DNA from: a virus
Lineage: Duplodnaviria > Caudoviricetes
Strand: one strand, 5' to 3'
IMG/VR virus record: IMGVR_UViG_3300020045_002087
Coordinates: 1 to 31,845 of that record
Length of the DNA: 31,845 nucleotides
The notes under the pieces were generated by a model. The model searched no databases. It was given only the letters and a program-made list of their open reading frames with translations, and was not told where the DNA came from. Numbering within the stretch: position 1 is the first letter of the stretch; every line of letters begins with the position of its first letter. The position numbers were made by a program, and so were the translations under genes. Shown here piece after piece: positions 1,462 through 28,629 of this stretch.

Positions 1462-1477
1462 AGCACCTCCTTGTGCT
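1462..1477 (-). promoter_or_regulatory. SD hairpin (CsrA/RsmA-type site)
   Basis: AGCAC-AAGGAG-GTGCT. Confidence 0.7.
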
Positions 1478-1490
1478 TGTTGATACATGG

Positions 1491-1518
1491 ATAATACCAG
1501 AATTGCGCCGTTTGTCAA
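1491..1518 (-). promoter_or_regulatory. Repeated sigma70-like promoter P1
   Basis: TTGACA-AACGGCGCAATTCTGG-TATTAT. Confidence 0.85.
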
Positions 1519-2090
1519 ATGATTTTGAACAGCTTCAGCAGTCGGGTAATGAAGTCGTCCTGCGCCGCCACCGGCACGGGGGCAACGTAGTGGTGCGGGG
1601 CCACCAGCAGCTTGTACCACTCAATCACCTCGGCAGTGTCGAAGCCGCGAACATACGCCCGTTGCTCCTCGGTTTCGATGGCATGCGAACTGTAGTCCCG
1701 GCGCACCACCTTCACGGGATCGGGGTAGGGAACCTCCACCCCAACCGCTGCCGTTTGAACTTCGTAATCCTGCATCGCCTTGACCATGCACCCCATGAAC
1801 AACCCGGTACGGCCCACGCCACCCCAGCAGCCGACATAGATGTCCTTGCCGTTGTACAACTCGCTGAGTGCAAAGCACAGGCCCTTCACCATGGCTGCTG
1901 GCTCAGGCACCGAGAAATCGACGGTATCCACGGCCATATCATGCGGATGGTTAATCTCCACGGCCATCTTGATCCCGGACAGGCGGCGGGTATGCGGGGC
2001 AAAGGACTTGAACGGGCCACCGAAGATGGTGCCCTCCACGTAGGGCAGTGTCACATGGATGCCATTACTCAGATTCATTTGATTCGACAT
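1515..2090 (-). CDS. Dual-specificity/protein-tyrosine phosphatase family protein
   Basis: VDFSVP acid loop, YVGCWGGVGRTG CX5R motif, AIETEEQ loop; AGGAG SD before ATG 2090. Confidence 0.9.
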   Translation of the reverse strand: MSNQMNLSNGIHVTLPYVEGTIFGGPFKSFAPHTRRLSGIKMAVEINHPHDMAVDTVDFSVPEPAAMVKGLCFALSELYNGKDIYVGCWGGVGRTGLFMGCMVKAMQDYEVQTAAVGVEVPYPDPVKVVRRDYSSHAIETEEQRAYVRGFDTAEVIEWYKLLVAPHHYVAPVPVAAQDDFITRLLKLFKII

Positions 2091-2098
2091 GCTTTCTC

Positions 2099-2494
2099 CT
2101 AACAGTCTGGACATTTTGAGGTCACGGAAATGTACCCTTTGACACACTCGCCACAACCATATCCGCTACAGGCTGGGCAGGGTTCTTTGACGGTGATGCT
2201 CTTCTTGTCTTTGCAGGACAAGCAGGGTGGCGTCACCTCGTACAGCTTGCTTCGCAGGATGGGAAGGCCGGGAGCATCCACCAGCACCACAGACAACCCA
2301 GCCCGTTTGCTTTTTGGCACCCCCTGCTTCACCTTGGCTCCGGGAAGTAGGGTAGTCCAGTTATCGGGGGACAGGGCGCACGTAGCGCCTCCGTCTGCCA
2401 TTAGGGTGATTCCCGTGGGGCCAGATGTAACCGACACCCGAACGTCACCCACGAAGAATTCCTGACCATCACGAAAAGTTAAAACTAGCGACAT
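2099..2494 (-). CDS. Divergent CsrA/RsmA-like protein with internal insertion and C-terminal Cys-rich Zn finger
   Basis: LVLTFRDGQEFFVGD-VRVSV and VVLVDAPG-LPILRSKLY resemble the N- and C-terminal halves of CsrA; four CxxC at the C-terminus. Confidence 0.6.
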   Translation of the reverse strand: MSLVLTFRDGQEFFVGDVRVSVTSGPTGITLMADGGATCALSPDNWTTLLPGAKVKQGVPKSKRAGLSVVLVDAPGLPILRSKLYEVTPPCLSCKDKKSITVKEPCPACSGYGCGECVKGYISVTSKCPDC

Positions 2495-4707
2495 TACTTA
2501 GCCCCGCTTAAAAGGTCGTACCAGTAGATAGGGGTGGGGGACTTGCTATTGCCCTTCTTACCCAAGAGTTTCAACAGTTTCTTGTACGCTTCCATGCCCC
2601 CAAATACATGCTTGAGGACTACATCCGAAACGTCCAAGGGGCCTTCAAATGCCATCAAGTCGGCCACGGTATTGACAGCGCCCATCATACGCACTCCCGA
2701 CGCCTTCAGGTCATTCATCAAGGAGGGGGTAATGCCCAATGGGAGCTTCACGAACACCTTGGCCCTCGTATCAGGGTGCCACTGTGCAATTGACTGCACT
2801 TTCAAGTTCATAGCCGGTACGGCTTGATCCACTCCGAAGATGGTGTTGAGCACCAAGTCACAGGGGGCCAAGTAGTCGCTCAGGGTCTTCAGATCAACGA
2901 TGATCTCCTCCGCTTTTCCCGCCTCCAGAGCGAGAGCTTGGCCCAGCACCTTGAGCCTGTATGCGATGGCGGTTTGAGAGCATGCCCCGGTGCCTTCCAA
3001 CAAGGCCGTGTCAATGAACAGGGACTTGGAGGTTGTAGCCGCCACGGAGTCAGACATCTCTTTCAAGTCCATGTGGTAACTGAGTTCAAGGCGCTCGGTG
3101 AATTCTGAGCCGGTGGCCCAAGACAAGATTTCATTCACCGCCTCCCCCTTCTCCCCGGACAGAACTGGCACATCCGTGGCGAACCACACGTTACCTGTGG
3201 TTCCGTCAATGGTCACCTTCACGAACTGATTGACTGTGATCGAGGATACCGTGTGGCAGTACCCCTCCTCGACGATCAGGTCAGTGCAACCAACCACGCA
3301 GGTCTTGTTCATCCCCCGTGCCACCACCGCTGCATGGGAGGTCAAGCCTCCGGTTGCGGTCAGGATGCCCACGCAAGCATTGATCCCGGCGATGTCGTCA
3401 GGGTCGGTTTCCTTGCGGATCAGGATGCACGGCTCCTTGCAATTGATTGCAGCGTCCGAGGTGAAGACGGCCACACCAGAGGTTACCCCTCCGCCTGCTG
3501 GGATGCCCGTTAGGTGGGCTTTCTCCTTGAAGGTGGGGTCGATTGTGTCCTGCAACACCGAGAGAAGCTGGGACTGCGTAACTCGCTTTACAGCGTCCGC
3601 CTTGGAGATGATCCCCTCGTTGGCGAGGTCAAAGGCGATCTGGAAGGATGCCTTCGGGCTGCGCTTACCATTCCGAGTTTGCAACAGGTACAGCTTGCCG
3701 TCTTGAATGGTAAATTCAACGTCCTGCATGTCCTTGTAGTTCTGTTCCAGAGCCACCAAGAGTTCCACCAGTTGATCGTGAATCTCGGAATTCCACTCAG
3801 CCATGAGGCCAATAGGCTGGGGGGTACGGATACCGGCAACTACGTCCTCTCCCTGTGCGTTTATCAGGAATTCGCCTTCTGGGAATGGGGTTCCCGTGCT
3901 GGGGCAGCGAGTGAAGACAACTCCCGTAGCCGAATTGTCGTTCAGGTTGCCGAACACCATGGACTGCACGGTGACTGCTGTGCCCCAATCATCAGAATAC
4001 CCGTGAATCTTGCGGTACTCCACGGCTCGGGGGTTATTCCAAGACTGGAACACCGCTTCAATTGCCCCCATCAACTGCTCACCGGGAGTGTCCGGGAACG
4101 TCTGACCTTGGGTTCCTACGATCTTCAGGAAGCGGGAGCACAGGCGCTTCAGGTGGTCACCCGATAGCTCGGCGTCGAACTTCACCCCTGCGTCGTGGCG
4201 CATCTCTGCAAGGGCATCCTCGAAGTGCTCCATGGGAACTCCCAAGGCCACCGACGAGTACATCTGGATCAGTCTGCGGTATGAGTCGTAAGCCGTGCGG
4301 TCACCAAGGCGTTCAGCCCAATCACCTATGGTATCGCTTGTGATGCCTACGTTCAGGATTGTGTCCATCATCCCCGGCATTGATACCCGTGAGCCTGAGC
4401 GGACTGACAACAGGGGAGTGTAGCCAAACTCCTTAGTCAGGTACTCGATCCCAGCCACCGCCTCGTTCATTACGCCTACCTTCAGGGCGGCTTTCAACGC
4501 GGCATTTGACTTCACCTTCTGGTAATGCACCGACACGCTACAGGGGATAGTGAAGCCGGAGGGGACTGGGAGGCCAAGGGATGCCATCTCAGCAAGGTTG
4601 GCCCCCTTTCCACCCAACAGGTTCTTCATGCTGGCGTCCCCATCTGTCTGGGAACCAAACAGATAAATGGCGTATGGGGAATTGGTATTGCTGGTCTTTG
4701 CTTCCAC
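2494..4707 (-). CDS. Pyruvate phosphate dikinase-like protein (ATP-grasp + phospho-His domains; non-canonical C-terminal domain)
   Basis: LLGGKGANL, SVRSG..SMPGMMDT, QGEDVVAG, DVEFT, LLQTR, GGLTSHAAVVARG; the PEP/pyruvate barrel motifs are absent. Confidence 0.93.
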   Translation of the reverse strand: MEAKTSNTNSPYAIYLFGSQTDGDASMKNLLGGKGANLAEMASLGLPVPSGFTIPCSVSVHYQKVKSNAALKAALKVGVMNEAVAGIEYLTKEFGYTPLLSVRSGSRVSMPGMMDTILNVGITSDTIGDWAERLGDRTAYDSYRRLIQMYSSVALGVPMEHFEDALAEMRHDAGVKFDAELSGDHLKRLCSRFLKIVGTQGQTFPDTPGEQLMGAIEAVFQSWNNPRAVEYRKIHGYSDDWGTAVTVQSMVFGNLNDNSATGVVFTRCPSTGTPFPEGEFLINAQGEDVVAGIRTPQPIGLMAEWNSEIHDQLVELLVALEQNYKDMQDVEFTIQDGKLYLLQTRNGKRSPKASFQIAFDLANEGIISKADAVKRVTQSQLLSVLQDTIDPTFKEKAHLTGIPAGGGVTSGVAVFTSDAAINCKEPCILIRKETDPDDIAGINACVGILTATGGLTSHAAVVARGMNKTCVVGCTDLIVEEGYCHTVSSITVNQFVKVTIDGTTGNVWFATDVPVLSGEKGEAVNEILSWATGSEFTERLELSYHMDLKEMSDSVAATTSKSLFIDTALLEGTGACSQTAIAYRLKVLGQALALEAGKAEEIIVDLKTLSDYLAPCDLVLNTIFGVDQAVPAMNLKVQSIAQWHPDTRAKVFVKLPLGITPSLMNDLKASGVRMMGAVNTVADLMAFEGPLDVSDVVLKHVFGGMEAYKKLLKLLGKKGNSKSPTPIYWYDLLSGAK
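2785..2798. repeat. 14-bp palindrome copy (intragenic)
   Basis: TGCAATTGACTGCA. Confidence 0.55.
3438..3451. repeat. 14-bp palindrome copy (intragenic)
   Basis: TGCAATTGATTGCA. Confidence 0.65.
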
Positions 4708-4710
4708 TTT

Positions 4711-4724
4711 GCACCTCCTTGTGC
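4711..4724 (-). promoter_or_regulatory. SD hairpin (CsrA/RsmA-type site)
   Basis: GCAC-AAGGAG-GTGC. Confidence 0.7.
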
Positions 4725-4740
4725 GTTTGGGATTGATGAG

Positions 4741-4768
4741 ATTATGCCAGAATCTAAAAGTTTGTCAA
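4741..4768 (-). promoter_or_regulatory. Repeated sigma70-like promoter P2
   Basis: TTGACA-AACTTTTAGATTCTGG-CATAAT. Confidence 0.85.
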
Positions 4769-4776
4769 GCGGTATT

Positions 4777-5334
4777 TCATGGGCCGAGGTCGGGGCCTAC
4801 CCACCAGTTCATGAAGGCATGAGCCTGACAACGCAAGTCGTCCATCGTGCCATCATTGACTATGCGGTAGTCGTAGCCATTACGGTAGATGATCCCCTTC
4901 TCGGATGAATGATCCCCAGCCACGCATCCGGGGCGAAGTAGGTGAATGATCGTGCCGCCTTCCTTGCGAATCCAAGCGGCCTCGTTCTCGTAGCGGACAT
5001 CCGTAATGATCAGTGCTTCGTTGCGGATTACTGACTCCCGCCACACCGGCTTCAGCGGGTCAATGAACAGGTCATCACCGAACACCGGGCGCAGGCCATC
5101 ATTCACCTTAGTCATTACCTCCCGAGGGATCACCCCTGTGTCCTCCCATGGAACGTCCTTGGTGTTGTCGTCGTAGAACACCGCCAAAGGGATACCTGAG
5201 ATGGTGTGCGAGATTTGCTTCACCGTATCCCCGAAAGCAGCCATGCGGGTGGTGGTTCCCATGATCTTCGCCAGCATGTCGCCAAGGGTGTTCTTCCCGC
5301 ACCGCTTGAAGCCCTGAATGCCTAAGAGTTGCAT
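4777..5334 (-). CDS. Deoxynucleoside monophosphate kinase (T4 gp1-like)
   Basis: P-loop GFKRCGKNT, AFGDTVKQ, IITDVRYENEA, H.SE. Confidence 0.88.
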   Translation of the reverse strand: MQLLGIQGFKRCGKNTLGDMLAKIMGTTTRMAAFGDTVKQISHTISGIPLAVFYDDNTKDVPWEDTGVIPREVMTKVNDGLRPVFGDDLFIDPLKPVWRESVIRNEALIITDVRYENEAAWIRKEGGTIIHLLRPGCVAGDHSSEKGIIYRNGYDYRIVNDGTMDDLRCQAHAFMNWWVGPDLGP

Positions 5335-5714
5335 TTCGTCATCTCCTCGATAATCTGTGCCACTTCTTCCACCGTGGCATCATGAGGCTCGATACCCGCG
5401 ATCTTGCCCATGTCGAACAGGAAGTCCCGCAAGCCCTGCACCTCAGGGTCGTAGCCTTTCATGGCTTGGATTGCCGCCACCGGGATTCGATTGATCGTCA
5501 AGACGCCATCCTTGCCTGCCTTCTTGCAGCACAGAATGTGGGTGTTCTTCTGGGAGGTCGCCTGATCGGTCAATCCCTTGCCGATGTTCTGGGCACCGAT
5601 GTTCAGGATAGCCTTCTTCTCCGCTTCCACGCTGCTTGCGGCGGTCACAATGCGTTCCGATACTGACTCGTCACCATCAGTGTGCGAATACACCCGCCAA
5701 AGTTGCTCTACCAT
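5322..5714 (-). CDS. Hypothetical protein
   Basis: AAGGAG SD upstream; overlaps the start of the kinase gene; start may be 5714 or 5720. Confidence 0.65.
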   Translation of the reverse strand: MVEQLWRVYSHTDGDESVSERIVTAASSVEAEKKAILNIGAQNIGKGLTDQATSQKNTHILCCKKAGKDGVLTINRIPVAAIQAMKGYDPEVQGLRDFLFDMGKIAGIEPHDATVEEVAQIIEEMTKCNS

Positions 5715-5733
5715 TCCCATCTCCTTAAAGGAA

Positions 5734-5753
5734 CACGGAGCCGAAGCCCCGTG
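5734..5753 (-). terminator. Putative intrinsic terminator with C(UUCG)G hairpin
   Basis: CACGGGGC-TTCG-GCTCCGTG followed by TTCCTTT. Confidence 0.6.
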
Positions 5754-5765
5754 CAATTAATTTCA
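5752..5765. repeat. 14-bp palindrome copy (gene junction)
   Basis: TGCAATTAATTTCA. Confidence 0.7.
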
Positions 5766-6023
5766 CGCTACTTGAGTTCTTCCCGTGGGGGTCAGACCCT
5801 TCTCAGCCAAGTGGGCTTGCAGGGCTTGCACCTGCCGCCAGCGATGCCCGGCGAACTGGCACACCTGCTGCACGGCGATGCTGATGATCCTCATGTTCAT
5901 CTTGGTAACATCCCACTGGATGCTGTAGTCCTCCCCCTGCTCCTTGGCGTAAGTCATCAGAGCTTCCCGCACAACAGGACTCATGCGGATGGGGTTGAAA
6001 TGCTGGTGCTTAGGCTTGCCCAT
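5763..6023 (-). CDS. Hypothetical protein
   Basis: ATG immediately after the thyX stop. Confidence 0.6.
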   Translation of the reverse strand: MGKPKHQHFNPIRMSPVVREALMTYAKEQGEDYSIQWDVTKMNMRIISIAVQQVCQFAGHRWRQVQALQAHLAEKGLTPTGRTQVA

Positions 6024-6024
6024 G

Positions 6025-6810
6025 TCACACCTTCCCGTGCTTGAAGGTGATCTCGAAATGACCTTCCACCAGTTCCCGCTCGGCGTCGGCATAAATGGCC
6101 GGGTAACGGTCGGCCACCTGATCAAACACGCTGTTGAAGGTCAGGCGGATTTCTTCTTCGGCATGGCGACTGGTACGCATTTCCAGCACATGACGCAGAG
6201 CACGGTGGTTGAACGTGCATTCAATGTGGTTGGCGATCCCGTTGCCAATGACACGGCGGAAGGCGCTGGTCAGCTTCTTCTTGGTGGCAAAGTCTTGGCT
6301 GTCGATACGGCTGACTTCGGCCATCTTCTTGATGATCTTTTCCTGATGCAGGATAGCTTCCTCGAACAGACCGGCCAGTTCGATGTTTTCCTGAATGCAG
6401 GTCGGGAGCCAGAAGGGCAGGTCGTCAAGGCGCACGAAGCGTCCCGAGAGTTGCGAGTATGCTGCCCCGGCGCGATGGCGAACCAGTTCATGGGTCAGCA
6501 CACGAGACACGTTGGTCAGCATGAGATTGACCACACCATGCTCAAGAACACTGCCGTGCTTGGTGGCGATCAAGCCCTGCTGGATGTAGTCGAAGTTGTT
6601 GCGGGTGCCAACCTTCGTCAGGTTCTTGTTCAGGTCAGTGCTGAAGGACATGTAGCAGAGCTTGCCTGCCGCTTCAACGATGACCTCGGTGCCGGATTCG
6701 GCATCGGTTGTCCATTCAGGGACGCCAATCTCTTCAAGGAAGGCTTTGAATCCTGCCTCCATGAGGGTGGTTTCCCCGATGATGAACGCCTTGGGTTGAA
6801 CTAATTTCAT
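6025..6810 (-). CDS. thyX: Flavin-dependent thymidylate synthase
   Basis: HGSVLEH, SRVLTHELVRHR...SQLSGR, NHRALRHVLEMR...AEEEIR; GGAGGAG SD. Confidence 0.93.
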   Translation of the reverse strand: MKLVQPKAFIIGETTLMEAGFKAFLEEIGVPEWTTDAESGTEVIVEAAGKLCYMSFSTDLNKNLTKVGTRNNFDYIQQGLIATKHGSVLEHGVVNLMLTNVSRVLTHELVRHRAGAAYSQLSGRFVRLDDLPFWLPTCIQENIELAGLFEEAILHQEKIIKKMAEVSRIDSQDFATKKKLTSAFRRVIGNGIANHIECTFNHRALRHVLEMRTSRHAEEEIRLTFNSVFDQVADRYPAIYADAERELVEGHFEITFKHGKV

Positions 6811-7112
6811 TGTGACTCCTCCTGATGGTGGGTGTAAATCGGCCAGTGCTCCGCTTTGGAAACAACTCCGGCCAGAATGTCGTCGATGGACAGGTCGCAC
6901 AGGGTCTCCATGCGCCCCAGAACGAACTTCAGGTTACCAATCTCCGCGCCCAATTTGACGCGGTTGGTGATCCTTTGGGGGTCGTCAGGGTGGTAGGAGG
7001 CGTAGCCATGCCGCAGAACCTTCATAGCGGCTTGAACTATCTCCCCTGCCTCCTCGGCAAGACATTCGAGGCGTTCTTCCTCGGCGTCCGTCAGGCCATT
7101 GGTGGTGCTCAT
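6807..7112 (-). CDS. MazG-like nucleotide pyrophosphatase
   Basis: LAEEAGEIVQAAMKVLRHG...EIGNL. Confidence 0.75.
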   Translation of the reverse strand: MSTTNGLTDAEEERLECLAEEAGEIVQAAMKVLRHGYASYHPDDPQRITNRVKLGAEIGNLKFVLGRMETLCDLSIDDILAGVVSKAEHWPIYTHHQEESQ

Positions 7113-7522
7113 TTCCCGGCCCCGACTGAATGCACAAGCGGGATGCCACCGGGGCCAATGGGCATGTAAATCTGGGTATGGCTGGGGCTACCGGCCATGC
7201 GCTCTTGGGCCTTGATTGCTTCATGCTGCAAATAGCGATCAGTCAGAGAGGAGTTGATGATCTCCTGTGCGCTGGCAATGCCTTTGGCCTCCTCCACCCT
7301 GATCTCGGCCCGTTTCTGCTCCACCGTGATCAACTGAGCCTGCTGCTGGATTTTGATCTCGTTGAGGGTGACTTCGTTCTCGGCACTGGTTCGGGATTGG
7401 TAGCGCCAGAAGGCCGGAAAGGCGAACATGACTGCGATGACCAATACCACGAGAATAGCAATGACCATCACTGCTACGCCGATGGACTTACCGGAACTGA
7501 TGCTTCTTTCGTTATAACTCAT
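7109..7522 (-). CDS. Membrane-anchored coiled-coil protein (resembles the SPFH/prohibitin C-terminal region)
   Basis: N-terminal TM helix; RVEEAKGIASAQEIINSSLT..YL; IYMP...GIP. Confidence 0.65.
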   Translation of the reverse strand: MSYNERSISSGKSIGVAVMVIAILVVLVIAVMFAFPAFWRYQSRTSAENEVTLNEIKIQQQAQLITVEQKRAEIRVEEAKGIASAQEIINSSLTDRYLQHEAIKAQERMAGSPSHTQIYMPIGPGGIPLVHSVGAGK

Positions 7523-7572
7523 GGTGCTCTCCTTATGTCACAGTCACTCAGCTTACTGGAAGCAGTGTGACA

Positions 7573-8551: not shown

Positions 8552-8563
8552 GCCCTCCTTGGC
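8552..8563 (-). promoter_or_regulatory. SD hairpin (CsrA/RsmA-type site)
   Basis: GCC-AAGGAG-GGC. Confidence 0.65.
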
Positions 8564-8565
8564 AG

Positions 8566-8579
8566 TGAAATTAATTGCA
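8566..8579. repeat. 14-bp palindrome/operator just downstream of P3
   Basis: TGAAATTAATTGCA. Confidence 0.75.
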
Positions 8580-10503: not shown

Positions 10504-10517
10504 GCACCTCCTTGTGC
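10504..10517 (-). promoter_or_regulatory. SD hairpin (CsrA/RsmA-type site)
   Basis: GCAC-AAGGAG-GTGC. Confidence 0.7.
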
Positions 10518-10519: not shown

Positions 10520-10533
10520 TGCAGTTGATTGCA
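10520..10533. repeat. 14-bp palindrome/operator downstream of P4
   Basis: TGCAGTTGATTGCA. Confidence 0.65.
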
Positions 10534-10797: not shown

Positions 10798-10825
10798 AGG
10801 TTACCAGAATTTAGAAGTTTGTCAA
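10798..10825 (-). promoter_or_regulatory. Repeated sigma70-like promoter P5
   Basis: TTGACA-AACTTCTAAATTCTGG-TAACCT. Confidence 0.8.
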
Positions 10826-15478: not shown

Positions 15479-15490
15479 GCCCTCCGTGGC
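15479..15490 (-). promoter_or_regulatory. SD hairpin (CsrA/RsmA-type site)
   Basis: GCC-ACGGAG-GGC. Confidence 0.65.
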
Positions 15491-15549: not shown

Positions 15550-15563
15550 TGCAGTTAATTGCA
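15550..15563. repeat. 14-bp palindrome/operator upstream of the P6 -35
   Basis: TGCAGTTAATTGCA. Confidence 0.75.
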
Positions 15564-17774: not shown

Positions 17775-17786
17775 GCCCTCCTTGGC
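17775..17786 (-). promoter_or_regulatory. SD hairpin (CsrA/RsmA-type site)
   Basis: GCC-AAGGAG-GGC. Confidence 0.65.
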
Positions 17787-17790: not shown

Positions 17791-17804
17791 TGAAGTTAAT
17801 TGCA
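17791..17804. repeat. 14-bp palindrome/operator downstream of P7
   Basis: TGAAGTTAATTGCA. Confidence 0.7.
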
Positions 17805-19869: not shown

Positions 19870-21033
19870 TCACGTTGAACTCGGTTTGACTTTCCATGTG
19901 GATACGGTCTTCACGTTCGTTAGCATCTGGATACCCGGATCGGCGTGGAAGTTCTTCAGCGCCTCTTTCTCATCTTCCCCCGCTACGATCAAGGTATTTG
20001 CTTCGGTAACTCCACTACTGTTGATGAATTGGTAGGTCACTCCCCATGTGGCGGCTAGGGCTTTCCCAAACTTGGAGATGTCTCCTAACTTGGGCACGAA
20101 TTTCTGAGACATCGTAGTCTCCAGCACAATGTCTGTGATGGTGGCGTTAGGGTACATCTTCTGCACCTTGTACTCGGCCTGTTTGACCGAGAATGCCTTG
20201 ACCTGCATCATCTTATCGAAGTGGATTCCTATGTCCTCGTTGAATTCCTTGAACTTGACCTCGTACATCTTGGGTTCAGTCGCCTTCAGTAGATCAACCC
20301 CGCCCTTCAGGTACTCAGCCTCCTCCTCCGTGAAAGGCTCCTTGTGCTTGTTCTTCACCGCCATGGCCCACGCTATATCTGCCTTGGCGTACTTGTCCAT
20401 CTCCTTCTGGGCCTGCTGTGCCAGCGAGTCAATGAGGATCGTCTTGGCGTCGTCATTCTTCAGGGCGTCGGCAATCTCTCCCAGCGTATGCAATGGGTCG
20501 GAGGGGGTTGGGACTGGTTTATCGTGCCACGTATCCAGCACGGCATCGAAGCCAGCGGCCAGTTCATCATTCAACTCACCACACTTGTGGATTCTCAGCT
20601 TTCCACCAAGGACTGACACCAGATACCACTTCCCGGCCTTCTCGTCCCGCACCCATTCGAGAGACTTCTTCCCGCAGTGCTTGCACTTGGCCGGTTTGTG
20701 GGGTTGTTGCCCCTCTGCAATTAATTTCACCAGCCGTTCATGCCACCCGGTAGCCGTCTGCCCCTTTGGGATGTTGGAGAAGTTCGGGGTGGAACTGGAG
20801 AACTTCCCTGTTGTCGTTCCTTGCAGGTTGAAGCCGGGGTTCAACCACGCCCCTGCTGGGTTCCCTTGCACGGAGGTGACCATGGGGGCGTCCAAGTCCT
20901 TCACCTTTTCCACCAAGGAAGCACCAAGATCATCGAGAGCATCATACCCGGCAGCAATCTTCCCGTACTGGGGATCGAGACTGTACTCGCCTCCCGGTGG
21001 TTTCTTCTTCAGGTAGGTCAGCTTAATTGCCAC
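19870..21033 (-). CDS. Mosaic 387-aa hypothetical protein (Pol A-like peptide, Zn ribbon)
   Basis: GTTTGKFSSSTPNFSNIP; CKHC...HKC. Confidence 0.75.
   Translation of the reverse strand: MAIKLTYLKKKPPGGEYSLDPQYGKIAAGYDALDDLGASLVEKVKDLDAPMVTSVQGNPAGAWLNPGFNLQGTTTGKFSSSTPNFSNIPKGQTATGWHERLVKLIAEGQQPHKPAKCKHCGKKSLEWVRDEKAGKWYLVSVLGGKLRIHKCGELNDELAAGFDAVLDTWHDKPVPTPSDPLHTLGEIADALKNDDAKTILIDSLAQQAQKEMDKYAKADIAWAMAVKNKHKEPFTEEEAEYLKGGVDLLKATEPKMYEVKFKEFNEDIGIHFDKMMQVKAFSVKQAEYKVQKMYPNATITDIVLETTMSQKFVPKLGDISKFGKALAATWGVTYQFINSSGVTEANTLIVAGEDEKEALKNFHADPGIQMLTNVKTVSTWKVKPSST
20716..20729. repeat. 14-bp palindrome copy (intragenic)
   Basis: TGCAATTAATTTCA. Confidence 0.7.
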
Positions 21034-21361: not shown

Positions 21362-21375
21362 GCACCTCCGTGTGC
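21362..21375 (-). promoter_or_regulatory. SD hairpin (CsrA/RsmA-type site)
   Basis: GCAC-ACGGAG-GTGC. Confidence 0.7.
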
Positions 21376-22081: not shown

Positions 22082-22086
22082 GGTGT

Positions 22087-22098
22087 GCCCTCCGTGGC
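22087..22098 (-). promoter_or_regulatory. SD hairpin (CsrA/RsmA-type site)
   Basis: GCC-ACGGAG-GGC. Confidence 0.65.
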
Positions 22099-22125
22099 GT
22101 TGATGAAAGTTGATTCGATGTACTC

Positions 22126-22153: not shown

Positions 22154-22161
22154 ATGGTATT

Positions 22162-22175
22162 TGCAGTTAATTGCA
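22162..22175. repeat. 14-bp palindrome/operator upstream of the P9 -35
   Basis: TGCAGTTAATTGCA. Confidence 0.75.
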
Positions 22176-22176
22176 T

Positions 22177-22353
22177 TTATTTTTCAAGCACTGCTGGTCG
22201 CTCTACCGTGGTGTCACATATCCCGCAGTTCCAAGACTTGACCAATACCCCCTGCCCCTTCACGGATCGGTTGCGGTAGAACACTTGCAGGCAGTTGCAT
22301 GCGGCACAGTGCCCTACCGTCTTGTCCCGCAGATGAACCTGCCTATCACGCAC
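22177..22353 (-). CDS. 58-aa Zn-ribbon protein (not in ORF track)
   Basis: GTG start; HCAAC...WNCGIC; fills the gap before P9. Confidence 0.55.
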   Translation of the reverse strand: MRDRQVHLRDKTVGHCAACNCLQVFYRNRSVKGQGVLVKSWNCGICDTTVERPAVLEK

Positions 22354-22903
22354 GAAGCCACCGCAGGAGGGAATCGACGACCCCTATAAGTACCCCTCGG
22401 AAGCCCGTGTAAGCTCTGTAGGGCATTTGTTTGACTTCAGGGATATGAGGTATAGGGAGGCGCTCCCACAAACCCCCACGGCCTTGCCAGTATTCCTTGC
22501 TTGCCGGGTGCGGGTACTCCCTCCCGAACACGATGCGCTTGGCCCCTGTGGTCGCCAGCATCTTGATGCAGTGCATGCACGGGCTGTCAGTGCTATAGAC
22601 GGTGTGGATGTCGTCGGGAAACTTGCACTGGGTCAAAGCATTCTGCTCGGCGTGAATGGCTTCGCATAGTTCCAACCCGGTGCCCGAGGGACAATCTGCG
22701 CCAGCACACTTGGAGTCGCTGCAATGAGGGCGATCAGGAGCAACACCGTTGTAACCTGTAGCCAGCACACGACCACGCTCATCAAGGAAGACACAACCCA
22801 CCTTGCGGCGGGAGCAAGTCCCCAAGCGTGAAATCACAAAGGCCACTGTCAGCCAAACTAGGTCTTTCAGTGTGCCGCGCAATTGCTTCCTTGATTTGTT
22901 CAT
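22346..22903 (-). CDS. dCMP deaminase
   Basis: TCSRRKVGCV, ATGYNG, HAEQNAL, SPCMHC; exact start uncertain. Confidence 0.92.
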   Translation of the reverse strand: MNKSRKQLRGTLKDLVWLTVAFVISRLGTCSRRKVGCVFLDERGRVLATGYNGVAPDRPHCSDSKCAGADCPSGTGLELCEAIHAEQNALTQCKFPDDIHTVYSTDSPCMHCIKMLATTGAKRIVFGREYPHPASKEYWQGRGGLWERLPIPHIPEVKQMPYRAYTGFRGVLIGVVDSLLRWLRA

Positions 22904-23237
22904 CTGTGTAGTTCCAGTAGAGTTCGGTTGCTACGGATGGGGTCATCCAGTATTCCATGGGATGGGAGAAGTTCCGGGGAGGGCCTTGCATGTCGAAAGC
23001 CGCATGCACCCACACAGCCTCCTCGGCGCACATCTTCTCCATAACGATAGGGCACTCATCACACGACCACCCGTAGTCGTCCCCGCAGTAATACTCACCC
23101 ATGCTGTTGGGAGTATCCACTTCTTTGCCCCCTGAGCATCCTCGGGCTAACACGCGGATGTAGCCCTTGGTGCCGGGTTCTGGTGCTCTGGGTATTCCTG
23201 TGGGGCGCACCTTGCCCCGTGCTCTGGCCTGTGTCAT
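22782..23237 (-). CDS. Hypothetical Cys-containing protein
   Basis: ATGA-coupled start; 3' end overlaps the deaminase gene. Confidence 0.55.
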   Translation of the reverse strand: MTQARARGKVRPTGIPRAPEPGTKGYIRVLARGCSGGKEVDTPNSMGEYYCGDDYGWSCDECPIVMEKMCAEEAVWVHAAFDMQGPPRNFSHPMEYWMTPSVATELYWNYTDEQIKEAIARHTERPSLADSGLCDFTLGDLLPPQGGLCLP

Positions 23238-23590
23238 CGCGTACCCCACAAAGATAGTCTAGGGATTTCCATGCCTATGGATCGGAAGTGCAGGTTGTGC
23301 AGCTTCAGCAGGTGCTCCATGACATCTGGCGGGAAGCCCTGTCTCAGGTTGCCATGCTGATCTGTTGAGTCGGTAATCAGCCCTACCAAATAGCCTTGCA
23401 ATTCCTCGCTGCCCCAAGTGGTTTCTACGGCCTGTGCAATCTTCTGGTAGGTGGTGCTCAGGTAGGCAATGCTATGAATCAACTGCTCGGGGTCACCCAT
23501 TAATCGTGGCCCTGCCTTGTCCTTGATCAACTCGATCTGGCGATCAAACTCTGCCTCTGTGAAGAGGTCAGGGAATACCAAGGCGCTCAT
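23234..23590 (-). CDS. Hypothetical protein (WG...YL..L..D...RQGFP family)
   Basis: Motif recalled from betaproteobacterial proteins; flanked by 16-bp direct repeats. Confidence 0.7.
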   Translation of the reverse strand: MSALVFPDLFTEAEFDRQIELIKDKAGPRLMGDPEQLIHSIAYLSTTYQKIAQAVETTWGSEELQGYLVGLITDSTDQHGNLRQGFPPDVMEHLLKLHNLHFRSIGMEIPRLSLWGTR

Positions 23591-23602
23591 CTCGTACCCC
23601 AC
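23234..23602. repeat. 16-bp direct repeats at 23234-23249 and 23587-23602
   Basis: TCATCGCGTACCCCAC vs TCATCTCGTACCCCAC (15/16). Confidence 0.75.
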
Positions 23603-23727
23603 GGGCGATAGTTCCGGGGGCGGGTGGTTTCAAGCCTCGACCACATCACCTGACGCCATCCTGAACGGGGTGTGTCCAAGCCTCCACAGGCCCATAGTAG
23701 GCAGACACGTTTCTTAGCAATCCTCAT
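23587..23727 (-). CDS. 46-aa hypothetical protein (not in ORF track)
   Basis: GGAGG SD; MRIAKKRV...PWGTR; ATGA overlap with the next gene. Confidence 0.55.
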   Translation of the reverse strand: MRIAKKRVCLLWACGGLDTPRSGWRQVMWSRLETTRPRNYRPWGTR

Positions 23728-23968
23728 GATATTCCTCCAAGGGGATGCCGGTTGTCCGGTGGTAGGTGCCGCCCAACAAAGGATCAGGAGCGCCTACGGG
23801 TTGCACTACTCGATTCTGCTTACCCTCAGCCTCGCACTCGTTCAGGCAGGACGCATGAACCATGTGCTTATTCCCGATGGGATCGACAAAGACTTTGTAA
23901 GAGAGCTTGCCATCGACCACCACTAGATCGCTTCGGCAGTTCCAACAGGGGGTTGTGCTCTTGCTCAT
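23714..23968 (-). CDS. Small Zn-binding protein
   Basis: CWNC...HASC; ATGA overlap. Confidence 0.65.
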   Translation of the reverse strand: MSKSTTPCWNCRSDLVVVDGKLSYKVFVDPIGNKHMVHASCLNECEAEGKQNRVVQPVGAPDPLLGGTYHRTTGIPLEEYHEDC

Positions 23969-24270
23969 TTGATCTTCCTTTCCTTGAACCCTAGACCTCG
24001 GTGCTGCTCGGACTGGAAGCAGATAGCCGTGTCGTCGGAGTGGCACTTCATTTCAAGGGACTCGCTGTGCCCACAACAGGTGCCGCTCACCACGAATCCC
24101 GCACTTACTGGTTTGGGCCACATCCACCAACGCCCATTGGATTCCGGCTGCACCTTGACACGAGCCATCATCTCGGCAACAGCTTGATGCACCAGCAGGT
24201 CAGGAAAGGTCACACCAATGTGCCTCGTGGGGTGCCCTTCCGATGTGCATTCAAATACGATGTACTTCAT
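23965..24270 (-). CDS. Hypothetical protein, MKYIVF paralog 2
   Basis: MKYIVF..FP..LVH..VAE..PVSAG..C.G.S. Confidence 0.75.
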   Translation of the reverse strand: MKYIVFECTSEGHPTRHIGVTFPDLLVHQAVAEMMARVKVQPESNGRWWMWPKPVSAGFVVSGTCCGHSESLEMKCHSDDTAICFQSEQHRGLGFKERKIK

Positions 24271-24563
24271 ATTCCGTCTCCGTCCCCTACGCATAGACCT
24301 ACACCATAGTCGTTCATGCGTAGCAATTGAGTATCGTCATCTCCACGGCTTTTCAGGTGTAGGGTGGTCGATTGGCCGTGGCACTCATCTACATCAAACA
24401 GGCTGACTTCACCTGCCGATATGGGAGTTGATTCTGCACTAAATGCCTCACGCAGCAAAGGGATTAAGGCTTCAGCCACGGATGAATGCACCAGCAGTGC
24501 AGGAAAGACAACGGGAATGTCCATGCACAGCTTGCCATGCACCCGGAAGACGATGTATTTCAT
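24267..24563 (-). CDS. Hypothetical protein, MKYIVF paralog 1
   Basis: MKYIVF..FP..LVH..VAE..PISAG..C.G.S. Confidence 0.75.
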   Translation of the reverse strand: MKYIVFRVHGKLCMDIPVVFPALLVHSSVAEALIPLLREAFSAESTPISAGEVSLFDVDECHGQSTTLHLKSRGDDDTQLLRMNDYGVGLCVGDGDGI

Positions 24564-24817
24564 GTCCCGGTCACCAGCTTGTAGGCTTTCTCCGTCAGGC
24601 CCCGCCATTGATGGGAGGGGTGGCGTCCAAAGATGGTCGGGTAATTGGAACCACGATAGGGGCACCACTCGTTACCATCCCAGTACCGGCGATTGCCTAT
24701 GATCTTCATGTTTCCCAAGCGGGGGAATCCCGGCTCGTTCCTTACCTCGTACTCACCGGGCAGATCGGGCATGATCTCGGCGCTGATCCAATCTGTTCTG
24801 CTGGCATCGGTCGTCAT
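24560..24817 (-). CDS. Hypothetical Trp-rich phage protein
   Basis: PGEYEV..RYWDG..W..WRGL. Confidence 0.7.
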   Translation of the reverse strand: MTTDASRTDWISAEIMPDLPGEYEVRNEPGFPRLGNMKIIGNRRYWDGNEWCPYRGSNYPTIFGRHPSHQWRGLTEKAYKLVTGT

Positions 24818-25044
24818 GATTGCCCCTTCAGTGCCAGTGCTTTGTTCCGCTCTGCCTTGCGTTGCCGTTTGGCCTCGGCAGCGGACTGGGTGGCGCTATC
24901 GTCACGGGCACCTTGCCGCCGATTTACCCTGTGAAGGAAGACGGTCATCCCGCTACCAAAAGCCGCATCACGCATGTGGGTGAGTGCCTTGCCCTCCAGC
25001 TTTCCCTCTGGATCGGTTTTTCTAGCCTGCCTCTTCGACCTCAT
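24814..25044 (-). CDS. Hypothetical basic protein
   Basis: GAGGAG SD. Confidence 0.65.
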   Translation of the reverse strand: MRSKRQARKTDPEGKLEGKALTHMRDAAFGSGMTVFLHRVNRRQGARDDSATQSAAEAKRQRKAERNKALALKGQS

Positions 25045-25054
25045 GACTTCTCCT

Positions 25055-25132
25055 CTAACTCAGTGCCATCAAAATGATAACTGCCAAGAGCACGTACCAA
25101 AAGACCTCTCGGTAGGTGCCCACACGTTGCAT
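25055..25132 (-). CDS. 25-aa single-TM peptide (not in ORF track)
   Basis: MQRVGTYREVFWYVLLAVIILMALS. Confidence 0.45.
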   Translation of the reverse strand: MQRVGTYREVFWYVLLAVIILMALS

Positions 25133-25143
25133 CAATGCCCTAC

Positions 25144-25476
25144 TCATTTCTTCAACTCCATCAGATCAAATACGATCTTCCTCATGTCCTCCAGATGGGA
25201 CTTGGTTGCCGACAACTCACCGGGGCTACCTACGTCGGTCGGGCGCACACCTGAATTCCACAACTCGTTCATCAGGGAGGTGGCCGACTCGTAGGTCAGT
25301 TCCATCATCGGGGGTATCTCCATCCCCTCCGTGCCATCCTCTGGGACAACCACGGTGAAGGGTTGCACGACCCCATCCTTGCTGCCGTTGGTTCCCTTGA
25401 TATGCCCATACACCCGAAACGCCTTGTGCATGATGTCTTTGTTCGCCCAGAACTCCAAGCCCTTGAATACCATCAC
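25144..25476 (-). CDS. Hypothetical protein
   Basis: GGAGG SD; LMNELWNSGVRPT...HLEDMRKIVF. Confidence 0.75.
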   Translation of the reverse strand: MMVFKGLEFWANKDIMHKAFRVYGHIKGTNGSKDGVVQPFTVVVPEDGTEGMEIPPMMELTYESATSLMNELWNSGVRPTDVGSPGELSATKSHLEDMRKIVFDLMELKK

Positions 25477-25859
25477 CCCCTCCTGTCGGTCATTGTCCTG
25501 CGGTCATCGGGGTAGTCTTCGCCTATGGCGTCTTGCAGGAAGCGGCGCTCCCAGTTGTCGGCCCTGCGTCTGCGAAGGGCGGTGTCCTTGTCCAATCCGA
25601 TCAGGGAATGGGACTTGACCTTGGCCTCCATAAAGGTGATTGCGCGTCTTACGTGGGCTGGCTTGTGGTTGAGGTATCGGGCATTCAGGGCGGCTATCTC
25701 CGCGACCAAGACACCCACCGAGAACGGTACGATCAGGATCACGTTGCGCCACACCTTCTGACAATCAGGGCACTTGTGCTGCTCGATATGCACTATCCCT
25801 ACAACTAGGCGCATTACGCCTGTGCTTCTCCCACAAAACGGACAATCAACCATGGTCAC
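25473..25859 (-). CDS. Hypothetical protein with N-terminal Zn ribbon
   Basis: CPFCG...CPDC. Confidence 0.65.
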   Translation of the reverse strand: MTMVDCPFCGRSTGVMRLVVGIVHIEQHKCPDCQKVWRNVILIVPFSVGVLVAEIAALNARYLNHKPAHVRRAITFMEAKVKSHSLIGLDKDTALRRRRADNWERRFLQDAIGEDYPDDRRTMTDRRG

Positions 25860-26191
25860 TCCCTCAATCCCAACTCACTCAACGTGGCATACACCACTGG
25901 CTTATCCGCTCTCTTCGGGCTGTCTAGGCGCACCTTGTAAAGGTCGTCGGATAAAGCTGCCTTGTTACTGCTTCCTTGTATCAGCAGTTCTATCACCCCT
26001 GTGTCGCCACCCTTGGCAATGAATCTCCAAGGAGCCACCTTATGTGCAATTAGCTGCACAGGAGTCCCGATTTCCAATACGTCCCAAGTGACCAGAGGAA
26101 GCCCCCTAACCGCTTGGATGCCTATAGGCAAAAGCCCCACATCTTGCAGGGCCTTGCGATTCGACAGGATGGATCGTATCGACTTGAACAC
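25856..26191 (-). CDS. Hypothetical protein
   Basis: Probable GTG start just after the upstream stop. Confidence 0.55.
   Translation of the reverse strand: MFKSIRSILSNRKALQDVGLLPIGIQAVRGLPLVTWDVLEIGTPVQLIAHKVAPWRFIAKGGDTGVIELLIQGSSNKAALSDDLYKVRLDSPKRADKPVVYATLSELGLRE
26045..26058. repeat. 14-bp palindrome copy (intragenic)
   Basis: TGCAATTAGCTGCA. Confidence 0.55.
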
Positions 26192-26192
26192 G

Positions 26193-26393
26193 CTAGACCT
26201 TGATGAACTGCTTCTCGAATTCGGCCTTGTCCATGTTCTGGATCGAGATGATCTCCTTCTCGCCCACAACCTTGTGGTACTGGACATCCATCTCCCCGAA
26301 GCGCCCTTGCTGGAGGCTTCGGATTTCGGCCACTGCCTTGTAGGATTCGGCGGTGTCGGCCTTCTTTACGAAATACGGATACTGGGTGGTCAT
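26193..26393 (-). CDS. Small protein, DUF1653-like
   Basis: YKAVA...VQY...EFEKQF. Confidence 0.6.
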   Translation of the reverse strand: MTTQYPYFVKKADTAESYKAVAEIRSLQQGRFGEMDVQYHKVVGEKEIISIQNMDKAEFEKQFIKV

Positions 26394-26623
26394 TGCTGAT
26401 CCTCCTGTTGGTGCTGCGGTTGAACAACCTTAGTGAATTTGATCTCGAACTCTTCCTTCTCCCGGCAGAAGCTATCATCCGGTACGCCCCGTGTGTGGTA
26501 GAGCATCATTACCTGCCCTGCCTTTGCGGAGTTGGTGCAATTAATGGACTCGCCCACAACGGTGTAATGTTGCCCGGTCTTATTGTTCTTCACCGGGTAG
26601 CGGTCTGCTCGTTTGTACATCAT
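26390..26623 (-). CDS. Small protein, DUF1653-like
   Basis: KTGQHYTVV...MMLY...FCREKEEFEIKF. Confidence 0.65.
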   Translation of the reverse strand: MMYKRADRYPVKNNKTGQHYTVVGESINCTNSAKAGQVMMLYHTRGVPDDSFCREKEEFEIKFTKVVQPQHQQEDQQ

Positions 26624-26850
26624 GGCTTCATCTCCCTGCAAATCTGCTTACCATCCCGCCCATACCGTGGGCTGAAGTCATTGTGCCGCAGGTACTCGCA
26701 CCCTGTTTCCGCATCCACCCAGATATGAGCCACCCTTATGGGACTGATGGCACTGGGCCTCTCCTTGGACTCGGCATGGGTGGAACCGATCATTACTCCC
26801 GCCAACAATGCTACAGCCGCCAGCAGTAGCGCCCTCCCCCACTCGCTCAT
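26620..26850 (-). CDS. Membrane-anchored small protein (DUF6440-like)
   Basis: TM helix plus VDAETGCEYL...PRY..DGKQIC. Confidence 0.7.
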   Translation of the reverse strand: MSEWGRALLLAAVALLAGVMIGSTHAESKERPSAISPIRVAHIWVDAETGCEYLRHNDFSPRYGRDGKQICREMKP

Positions 26851-27395
26851 GGCTTGATCTCCTCGATCTCCCAGCAGCGAACACGCACGATGTCTTGGAT
26901 ACGGGGAGTGTCCATCTTCATCTCGTACAGGCGGTAACGCTCTGGGTCTTCATCGGTGAGGGCACCACCCGTGGGAGGCCAGCTTTTCACGATCACGCCT
27001 GTGTCCCCGGTTTGGTATTGCTTCAACCACGAGAACAGGTCGTTGGTGATGCGGACTGGGGTGCCGTCATGGAGGTACTGTGCGGCCTTTTTGCCGAGCT
27101 TTTTGGGCTGGCTGATAGGTGGGGTAGGGTCAGCCTCCCCAAGGCCAACAGCATCTAATGCGTCCTTCTGGCGTTGGGTCATTTCCTCGACCGGCGCTGC
27201 TACGGGTTTGGCCGTATCCGTACTGGCGGGGTTCTTCTTGACGCCGAAGATCAGCTTCTTCTTGGCGAGTACGGCATCCGTGGCCGCATAGATTTCCTGA
27301 GAGATTTGGGCCGGGGACTTGCCCTTGCCCAACACGATGACCTTCTTTTGTGCGGGGGGTGTTTCGGCTGGTTTCTTGATCAACGTTATTGCCAT
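26847..27395 (-). CDS. Hypothetical Lys/Pro-rich protein with C-terminal SH3-like domain
   Basis: AAGGAG SD; GTPVRI..GDTGVIV..YEMKMD. Confidence 0.75.
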   Translation of the reverse strand: MAITLIKKPAETPPAQKKVIVLGKGKSPAQISQEIYAATDAVLAKKKLIFGVKKNPASTDTAKPVAAPVEEMTQRQKDALDAVGLGEADPTPPISQPKKLGKKAAQYLHDGTPVRITNDLFSWLKQYQTGDTGVIVKSWPPTGGALTDEDPERYRLYEMKMDTPRIQDIVRVRCWEIEEIKP

Positions 27396-27570
27396 TTTGA
27401 ATCTCCTTGAAAGGGACGCACCACACGCGGGTCGTACCTACCTTTACTCGTTTGAACTGTTGCTCTGCTTTGGTAGTGCATTCTGCCTTGTTGGGCATCA
27501 CCACTGTCTCGATGCTCGGCCTGTAGTGAGGGAAGGCCGACAGGTAGGCGATGACCAACAGGTGCTTCAC
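27130..27570 (-). CDS. Hypothetical protein; only the first ~55 aa look genuine
   Basis: GTGA coupling; C...C-V-P small-protein pattern; the rest overlaps the next gene. Confidence 0.5.
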   Translation of the reverse strand: MKHLLVIAYLSAFPHYRPSIETVVMPNKAECTTKAEQQFKRVKVGTTRVWCVPFKEIQNGNNVDQETSRNTPRTKEGHRVGQGQVPGPNLSGNLCGHGCRTRQEEADLRRQEEPRQYGYGQTRSSAGRGNDPTPEGRIRCCWPWGG

Positions 27571-28031
27571 TGCAAGCCACCCATAGTGGGCATCTCCGAC
27601 AGATCAAACGAATGCCCATACTGTGGAGGGGGCGGGAGGGGTTGGGTACTCGCCCTCATGGCTTTCCGCAACTGGCCCACATGGGAATGAACCTCCCCCA
27701 GAAGGTCGGACACCTGCATGGAGTAGATCGAGTTCAAGAGGTTCTGCATTTGGGTCGTCTTGCCCTGTGACTGGGTTCGGGCATAGGACATCAAGCTGGT
27801 GGTCAGGGCCTCCAGATCATGAAGCCGGTCATCGTTCATGAGGCGCACACACAAGGCCCCAATCGCCACGAAAGCATCTGCCCCCTCCGGGCCATCGAGT
27901 AGCTCCTTCAGGTGGGTGAAAGCCGCAAACTGGTTATCGTTATAGCGGCGGATCATGTCCTCGCCCATGGCCTTCATCTTGCAGGTGGGGGCTTCATCAC
28001 AGGAAGCACAATCATGTCCGGGTAGCATCAC
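27567..28031 (-). CDS. Hypothetical protein
   Basis: N-terminal CASC....C; coupled. Confidence 0.7.
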   Translation of the reverse strand: MMLPGHDCASCDEAPTCKMKAMGEDMIRRYNDNQFAAFTHLKELLDGPEGADAFVAIGALCVRLMNDDRLHDLEALTTSLMSYARTQSQGKTTQMQNLLNSIYSMQVSDLLGEVHSHVGQLRKAMRASTQPLPPPPQYGHSFDLSEMPTMGGLQ

Positions 28032-28354
28032 TTGGCCTTGAGTTCAAAGGTGTCAGCGGCGGCGTGTTCGATGCCCACATAGCGGCGGGTCACTGTGCCA
28101 TCCTTGGAGAGGGCGAAGGTCTCGATCTTCCAAGTGTTGTCCGGGTAGCGGGGGTTCAGCGGGATGCCAATGCCGGTCACGGACAGGCCATTGGTGCCCA
28201 GCCCCGAATTGGTGACGACGATCTGGCCCACTGTGTAGGGGCACGTCTGCTCTGCTGCCTTCTGGAGCAATTCTGTGCGGGTCTGGTTCTGCTCTTCGAT
28301 CTTGCGATCCAACAAGCGGACATCTTCAAAGATTGATGCTGTGCTGAGGCTCAT
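28028..28354 (-). CDS. Hypothetical protein
   Basis: AGGAG SD; CPYTVGQIV. Confidence 0.75.
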   Translation of the reverse strand: MSLSTASIFEDVRLLDRKIEEQNQTRTELLQKAAEQTCPYTVGQIVVTNSGLGTNGLSVTGIGIPLNPRYPDNTWKIETFALSKDGTVTRRYVGIEHAAADTFELKAK

Positions 28355-28362
28355 GGCTTCTC

Positions 28363-28614
28363 CTATTGAACGAACTTGAGGGTGAATAACTTCTGGGCTG
28401 CTTCGATGCAGTCTGGGATTGCCTTACCGATGGACTTGTAGAAAGTGGGATGCACGATGCACTCGTAGCCCAAGGAGAGGATTGCCCGTTCCTGCTGGGT
28501 CATCCCGATCCTGAAGTCCTTCACCACCCGCAGTGCTTCTTTGATTTTGCCTGCCTTGAAGGCTTGCACTGCTTTGGCGGTTTGTGATTGAGCCTTACTG
28601 AGTGAGTCTTGCAT
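28363..28614 (-). CDS. Conserved small phage protein
   Basis: KEALRVVKDFRIG...GYECIVHPTFYKSIG; first gene after P10. Confidence 0.75.
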   Translation of the reverse strand: MQDSLSKAQSQTAKAVQAFKAGKIKEALRVVKDFRIGMTQQERAILSLGYECIVHPTFYKSIGKAIPDCIEAAQKLFTLKFVQ

Positions 28615-28617
28615 GGT

Positions 28618-28629
28618 GCCCTCCTTGGC
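28618..28629 (-). promoter_or_regulatory. SD hairpin (CsrA/RsmA-type site)
   Basis: GCC-AAGGAG-GGC. Confidence 0.65.

Follow-up and report, generated by a model that had tools for sequence, protein, structure and literature searches.

What reads a set of nine hairpins, each of which encloses the Shine-Dalgarno (SD) sequence of a promoter-leading gene in a phage? The hairpins lie in the virus record IMGVR_UViG_3300020045_002087 (Duplodnaviria; Caudoviricetes), and the window that we analyzed is this entire 31.8-kb record (31,845 nucleotides). Their loops resemble the RNA sites of the translational regulators CsrA, RsmA, and RsmE, and the window contains a gene (2099-2494) that a first-pass annotation had called CsrA-like. 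From comparisons of the window with related phages, we propose that the product of this gene, a long-form CsrA-like protein, represses translation by occupying predicted ANGGAG loops on operon-leading genes, a reading to which we assign a probability of about 0.65.

Hairpins at promoter-leading genes in the window

The first-pass annotation had placed nine hairpins in the window, in front of the first gene behind 9 of 10 promoters, and we found all nine at those positions on the minus strand. Of ten promoters detected, nine lead to a gene whose ANGGAG SD sequence is enclosed by a stem of 3 to 5 bp, and the tenth leads to an SD sequence with no stem. The form GCAC-ANGGAG-GTGC occurs four times in the window compared to no matches in 100 shuffles, and GCC-ANGGAG-GGC occurs five times (shuffle mean 0.07, largest 1). 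In each of the nine, the SD sequence is 6 to 8 nt from the start codon, and the predicted probability of the closing pair is 0.68 to 0.99 when the leader is folded with 30 coding nucleotides. SD sequences of internal genes lack the hairpin, as had been claimed: at least three Watson-Crick pairs were present at 9/10 promoter-leading genes versus 0/14 internal genes with an ANGGAN SD sequence (Fisher P = 7.6e-6), the 14 being drawn from 61 internal genes with heuristic start calls, some of them mis-picked. The internal ligase and MazG genes have stems of 0 and 1 pairs, respectively.

These sites agree with the high-affinity Csr/Rsm site, in line with the earlier suggestion that they are ANGGAX hexaloops overlapping the SD sequence. 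That site is described as an ANGGAX hexaloop on a stem, in which the base N loops out, the protein backbone reads the bases, and the closing G is contacted by Thr5 (PMC4005645). A single GGA is present in eight of the nine leaders.

All hairpins, genes, and promoters that follow are on the minus strand. Hairpin 1 (1463-1476; GCAC-AAGGAG-GTGC, 5 bp) precedes gene 1460-354 (phrog_20946) behind the promoter at 1518-1491, and hairpin 2 (4711-4724; 4 bp) precedes the pyruvate-phosphate-dikinase-like gene 4707-2494 behind the promoter at 4768-4741, whose transcript includes the csrA-like gene. Hairpin 3 (8552-8563; GCC-AAGGAG-GGC) belongs to gene 8548-8153 (promoter 8615-8588), hairpin 4 (10504-10517; 4 bp) to gene 10500-10243 (phrog_18992; promoter 10573-10546), and hairpin 5 (15479-15490; GCC-ACGGAG-GGC) to the SWIM-finger gene 15475-15182 (promoter 15541-15514). 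Downstream of the promoter at 17841-17814, hairpin 6 (17775-17786) precedes gene 17771-17508. Hairpin 7 (21362-21375; GCAC-ACGGAG-GTGC), in the sole leader with a second GGA, precedes gene 21358-21023 (phrog_21015; promoter 21419-21392); hairpin 8 (22087-22098) precedes gene 22081-21653 (promoter 22153-22126); and hairpin 9 (28618-28629) precedes gene 28614-28363 (phrog_18237; promoter 28678-28651). Because the nine copies have a common promoter-spacer signature and their leaders are 38 to 81% alike, the two stem variants in the window cannot be counted as nine independent changes. Relatives of the phage, rather than the window copies, supply the strong evidence of covariation.

Covariation of the stems in related phages

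We placed the window in the DLP5/RcZahn-like phage group, of which a typical genome is about three times the length of the window. Its terminase is 52 to 56% identical to those of Stenotrophomonas phages DLP3 and DLP5, several Vibrio phages, RcZahn, and RHph_TM16. The compensatory stem changes anticipated by the first-pass annotation are present in these relatives. At the leader orthologous to that of the dikinase-like gene, an ANGGAN SD sequence was found in 43/47 loci, 27 of which enclose it in a 3-bp Watson-Crick stem, with ten different stem sequences. In 5,000 shuffles of the 3' arm, a comparison that ignores relatedness among the loci, the mean number of stems was 4.4 and the maximum was 12. 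The third stem pair is T-A in 10 cases, A-T in 9, C-G in 7, and G-C in 5. The first A of the loop is kept and N varies freely (C 15, A 14, T 12, G 2), in keeping with a base that is looped out (PMC4005645). A second orthologous leader has a 3-bp stem in 22 of 39 loci, with eight stem sequences; counts for both leaders exclude three near-copy rows. Within RcZahn, stems are present at 18/25 operon-leading versus 5/43 internal ANGGAN SD sequences, and hairpins are also abundant in RHph_Y1_11.

A long-form CsrA-like protein

The gene at 2099-2494 (minus strand) encodes a protein of 131 amino acids, and its ATG overlaps the stop codon of the upstream gene, the pyruvate-phosphate-dikinase-like gene 2494-4707 (minus strand), which is the first gene of the transcript. 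The two ends of CsrA are matched by residues 1-27 and approximately 67-87, with an insert of four predicted strands between them. At the positions of CsrA Thr5 and Arg44, the protein has Thr6 and Arg81; the Arg6 position is hydrophobic, and residues ~90-131 form a Cys-rich, DnaJ-like zinc-finger tail. We identified orthologues by synteny, as similar genes just after the dikinase-like gene in relatives. They form a family of ~90 residues in which both ends match CsrA and ~35 inserted residues lie between them. The Pfam CsrA family (PF02599) matches 24/29 aligned members at E values up to 0.1 (best 4.6e-8), and 10 of 12 matches of the family profile in the PDB are CsrA/Rsm chains (best E 0.0015). 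Residues 1-27 of canonical-length CsrA align to the start of the family and residues 27-47 to its end, which indicates that the ~35 residues are inserted at CsrA residue 27. Across 175 rows, the arginine corresponding to CsrA Arg44 (Arg81) is present in 97%, and the Thr5 position is Gly in 44%, Ser in 29%, and Thr in 14%. The long form fails the canonical CsrA architecture of five strands and ~60 residues. The description of 2099-2494 as CsrA-like stands at the level of the family, but the protein is not canonical, given the ~35 extra residues, the replaced Arg6, and the zinc-finger-like tail.

A structure model of the window protein has nine strands and a helix (mean predicted local distance difference test score 85). 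That strand count is what a single polypeptide containing the two halves of a CsrA dimer, with one remaining site, should show. Atlas models of long clusters named CsrA align with residues 1-88 of the window protein (template modeling scores 0.56/0.80). Single-chain fold searches are unable to match a two-chain CsrA dimer. The top rows of a VIA comparison were sandwiches of class II fusion proteins (Z 7.5 and below), which we set aside as a common arrangement. We also looked for an internal repeat by profile comparison; the two halves align at a score of 8.0, and 30 column shuffles gave 5.1 to 10.3, so a tandem duplication is not supported by the sequence. With no detectable repeat and with fold searches that do not single out CsrA, the single-chain arrangement is something that we infer.

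The family comprises 522 clusters at E values up to 1e-10, and its members are annotated as hypothetical in the phage records that we saw. The tree of the CsrA-like proteins recovers two clades of the marker tree, which is consistent with vertical inheritance of the gene. One locus, L100, has both the long form and a canonical csrA gene (L100:1771-1960) on a single contig.

Some lineages differ in both protein and site. In one clade of 12 rows, the hairpins have A-U closing pairs, and the proteins have Gly at position 5 and mostly lack the C-terminal helix. With the near-copies L041 and L052 left out, 13 rows combine Gly with A-U, 2 combine Gly with C-G, and 23 combine another residue with C-G. 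We rejected this count as evidence of co-evolution: A-U is essentially confined to one clade, which leaves two independent pairs (sign test P = 1). In SIO-2, the leaders have tetraloop hairpins of the form GCU-(A/U)AGG-AGC in place of hexaloops. Its CsrA-like protein, VPEG_00064 (L093:36925-37407), is very divergent and lacks the Arg44 position. The A-U/Gly5 and SIO-2 shifts fit protein-RNA co-evolution, but only one or two events underlie them, and they did not pass a tree-aware test. A broader reading is that the family is a single-chain, one-site CsrA that folds both dimer halves into one polypeptide, is widespread in phages, and recognizes hairpins on operon-leading SD sequences as a code private to the phage, even in hosts lacking Csr. 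Protein and RNA would then have shifted together between lineages, with C-G closing pairs matched to Thr/Ser5, A-U pairs to Gly5 and the loss of the C-terminal helix, and the tetraloop to the SIO-2 protein, to give natural orthogonal repressor-site pairs. We offer this reading tentatively and consider it doubtful as a whole.

Co-occurrence of the gene and the hairpins

A profile search detected the csrA-like gene in 61 of 62 loci that carry the group marker. The exception, SIO-2, has its very divergent gene at the same place (E 0.02 to 0.03 among the few genomes searched). Three phages without a csrA-like match served as controls. RcDurkin, isolated on the host strain of RcZahn, has stems at 0/16 leading and 1/31 internal SD sequences. 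No hairpin was found at 69 SD GGAG sites in RHph_I4 (100 of 108 kb examined) or at 73 such sites in FBPa45, a Pseudomonas phage that is a distant relative. Gene and hairpins, whose correlation the first-pass annotation had proposed to examine, occur together in RcZahn and are both missing from RcDurkin, RHph_I4, and FBPa45. Hairpins in relatives where both phage and host lack CsrA, which would have spoken for inherited cassettes or translation enhancers, were looked for and were absent from RcDurkin and RHph_I4.

We also searched the assemblies of bacteria that harbor related phage loci; the completeness of these assemblies was not reported. PF02599 gave no canonical csrA match in an Azospirillum genome or an Acetobacteraceae metagenome-assembled genome. 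A Thalassobaculaceae chromosome gave only a weak match, which coordinate comparison located in the phage gene, and two other host assemblies gave matches above the cutoff. The phage loci in these three alphaproteobacterial assemblies (Azospirillum, Acetobacteraceae, and Thalassobaculaceae) carry two, three, and two hairpins. Rhodobacter capsulatus is not known to have a csrA gene. S. meliloti is reported to be without a chromosomal csrA (PMC7366521). Since hairpins are present in assemblies that gave no canonical csrA match, the phage protein appears to be the strongest candidate for reading the hairpins across the family, although the window sites could be bound by a host CsrA as well.

Proposed mode of repression

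Host-type promoters would produce the hairpin-led mRNAs, and the CsrA-like protein would accumulate from the second transcript and then occupy the hairpin loops. Loop-bound protein would block loading of the 30S subunit on the first genes. Many starts in the window overlap the preceding stop codon, that of the csrA-like gene included, and repression would reach downstream genes, among them the csrA-like gene, only at such overlaps. Coupling to the dikinase-like gene could in this way close an indirect negative feedback loop. The first-pass annotation had described the csrA-like gene as transcribed from one of the hairpin leaders and as autoregulated. The gene is on that transcript, but the hairpin covers the SD sequence of the dikinase-like gene upstream; because the csrA-like ATG merely overlaps the dikinase-like stop codon, feedback on its own expression is at most indirect, through translational coupling. 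Locus L006 has a csrA-like gene with its own 3-bp hairpin. The description of the regulated operons as early derives from the host-type promoters, and hairpins in RcZahn also precede a lytic transglycosylase gene. The system may serve either as a switch from early to late expression or as an aid in holding the temperate state.

Several observations weigh against repression by the long-form protein, in addition to the relatedness ignored by the arm shuffle and the unreported completeness of the host assemblies. Taken alone, the window protein gave no match in Pfam, PHROG, or direct homologue searches, and single-sequence searches returned only the protein itself. Foldseek found no PDB match to its model at E 0.001, and VIA ranked RsmN 36th (Z 4.1, root mean square deviation 2.3, 49 aligned, residues 2-85), below generic beta-sandwiches. 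The negative controls are three more distant phages and not sister lineages that lost the gene, which makes them one clade-level contrast. In 13 of 52 nonidentical family loci, the csrA-like gene is present with no 3-bp hairpin in the 4 to 27 kb examined, and L002, L013, L046, and L087, three of them close to the window, have little structure. Other hairpin-poor relatives include DLP3 and DLP5, with 2-bp stems, and L100, with a shifted ANGGA loop. Finally, a host CsrA would find perfect C-ANGGAG-G targets in the window sites.

One alternative keeps the CsrA-like protein at the loops and gives it another task, namely to bring a partner that cleaves or otherwise modifies the mRNA in the manner of T4 RegB. 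A small conserved gene with a THxxGNRRF motif directly follows the csrA-like gene in 43/52 family loci, for example at L008:6832-7053 (RcZahn gp8) and L007:19119-19478 (DLP3_138), and is fused to it in L099 (L099:756-1412) and, by eye, in P0027. RegB, which has a RelE-like fold, cuts GGAG SD sequences of early T4 mRNAs; RNA structure protects against it (PMC3014915). The partner gave no informative match in Pfam, Atlas, or PDB, the idea that it is a nuclease comes from an impression of its topology, and it is missing from the window, L001, L016, and L030, which keep nine, five, seven, and three hairpins. We therefore consider this alternative unlikely. The partner often occurs with a DnaJ-like zinc finger; the window lacks the THxxGNRRF domain, and there the CsrA-like domain carries the zinc finger as a fusion.

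Alternatively, host CsrA/RsmA might read the hairpins, tying phage expression to host state or being titrated by phage mRNA, with the phage protein doing another job or only competing. The window sites conform to the canonical C-ANGGAX-G site; Stenotrophomonas and Vibrio, which have CsrA, are hosts of some relatives; and L100 carries its canonical csrA beside the long form. Against this stand the abundance of hairpins in RcZahn and RHph_Y1_11, their presence in alphaproteobacterial assemblies without a canonical csrA match, and their absence (0/73) from Pseudomonas phage FBPa45. Reading by the host protein is, on this evidence, improbable.

We give similarly poor odds to stems that work without any protein, tuning initiation or protecting the 5' end of short leaders and spreading with duplicated promoter cassettes. 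The window promoters and leaders do resemble each other, stems are weak or absent in some relatives that have the csrA-like gene, and SIO-2 pairs a different hairpin (GCU-AAGG-AGC) with its very divergent gene. A generic stem, however, would not fix the loop at six or keep the first A while leaving N free, and stems are missing from related phages whose promoters are similar but which have no csrA-like gene. CsrA proteins can also act positively, but stabilization or activation of the mRNAs by the loop-bound phage protein is very improbable, as the site is the SD sequence itself, 6 to 8 nt from the start codon, in the geometry of RsmE repression at hcnA.

Comparison to known regulators

If it represses as we propose, the conserved hairpin-protein system works like RsmE on hcnA, by analogy, with a protein that departs from the canonical five-strand CsrA. 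As in the CsrA/RsmA/RsmE sites at SD hairpins (RsmE-hcnA, PDB 2JPP; PF02599), a hexaloop on a short stem with a C-G closing pair lies over the SD sequence, and the phage protein matches both ends of CsrA and retains the Thr5 and Arg44 positions. Unlike those regulators, it is phage encoded, has a ~35-residue insert, nine predicted strands instead of five, a hydrophobic Arg6 position, and a zinc-finger-like tail, and its putative targets have one GGA in 8/9 leaders. As for an antagonist small RNA, there was no Rfam match in the window, which is about one third of a typical group genome. An insertion that reroutes the chain and keeps the RNA-binding sheet is also described for RsmN/RsmF of Pseudomonas aeruginosa (PMC3791407); in RsmN, a dimer, the inserted element is a helix, whereas the phage insert consists of four predicted strands. 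A CsrA-like sandwich formed by one chain has a precedent in YqeH (PMC2954204).

Canonical csrA genes are carried by phages (30 phages in PMC7366521; PTXU04_00028 in PMC11879866), and knockdown of PTXU04_00028 shrinks plaques (PMC11879866). In contrast to the long form, these genes were found by similarity to Escherichia coli CsrA and were proposed to act on the host, and the accessible parts of those articles describe no phage-internal target set. T4 RegA and RegB likewise are phage-encoded posttranscriptional controls at initiation regions of early mRNAs, with RegB targeting GGAG SD sequences; they differ in that RegA acts at A+U-rich sites that lack structure and RegB is an endonuclease that structure blocks, and neither is a CsrA relative (PMC3014915). 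We found no description of the long CsrA-like form or of such a target set in the literature covered, from which subscription journals were mostly absent and supplements were not included; the phage csrA table of PMC7366521 could bear on prior detection.

Phage CsrA homologues have hardly been tested for their role, which is mostly presented as manipulation of the host (PMC11879866, PMC7366521). A phage-internal target set visible in sequence makes the question directly testable in the cultured pair RcZahn and R. capsulatus. If the long form is a compact single-chain reader of a 12- to 14-nt hairpin, it would be a new architecture for the CsrA fold and might find use in alphaproteobacteria as a translational switch.

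Promoters, palindrome, and neighboring genes

The ten promoters in the window have the form TTGACA-16 nt-TAnnnT (CATAAT at the 4768 promoter), and the leaders of the nine that are hairpin led have estimated lengths of 23 to 38 nt. The tenth, of the same type, is at 10798-10825 on the minus strand (-35 at 10825), and its first gene, 10768-10577, has the SD sequence without a stem. Shuffled sequences contained terminator-like sites at least as often as the window did.

A 14-bp palindrome, TGCARTYRAYTGCA, occurs in 13 copies with no more than one mismatch (shuffle mean 0.08), starting at 666, 2785, 3438, 5752, 8566, 10520, 12704, 15550, 17791, 20716, 22162, 26045, and 28688. Six copies flank promoters (6 of the 10), and the remainder are inside genes. 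The copy at 8566-8579, which has no strand assigned, lies between promoter 3 and hairpin 3, the copies at 10520-10533 and 17791-17804 are placed likewise, and those at 15550, 22162, and 28688 are 8 to 9 nt upstream of the -35 box. The palindrome is likely a DNA operator. We counted 18 copies in RcZahn, 24 in RcDurkin, and 7 in the part of DLP3 examined. We rejected the palindrome as a component of the hairpin system, because RcDurkin carries those 24 copies but lacks hairpins. Of the earlier suggestion that the regulon is layered on a promoter and operator code, the operator-like element is real, but it is independent of the hairpins. In L028, L051, L072, and L085, the palindrome is immediately before the csrA-like SD sequence.

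The csrA-like gene is flanked in a conserved block by the dikinase-like gene 2494-4707, in which Pfam recognizes the N-terminal and mobile domains, and by a DSP/PTPase-like phosphatase gene at 1515-2090. The two flanking genes possibly form a phosphorylation module, and the PHROG label of the phosphatase gene, thymidylate synthase, is likely an error. Overall, the window contains nucleotide-metabolism genes and small unknown genes. DLP3 and DLP5 are temperate (PMC7326821). Two group members sit in alphaproteobacteria, L101 in a 5-Mb chromosome (OZ001190.1) and L097 in a 169-kb contig (NZ_FZOI01000013.1), which suggests integration; DLP5 is reported as a phagemid. A PIG-L family deacetylase gene (28704-29393) directly follows the gene for the terminase large subunit. 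Open reading frame 19870-21033 (387 amino acids) looks composite, with residues 63-97 resembling the DNA polymerase family phrog_17, followed by a Cys/His motif.

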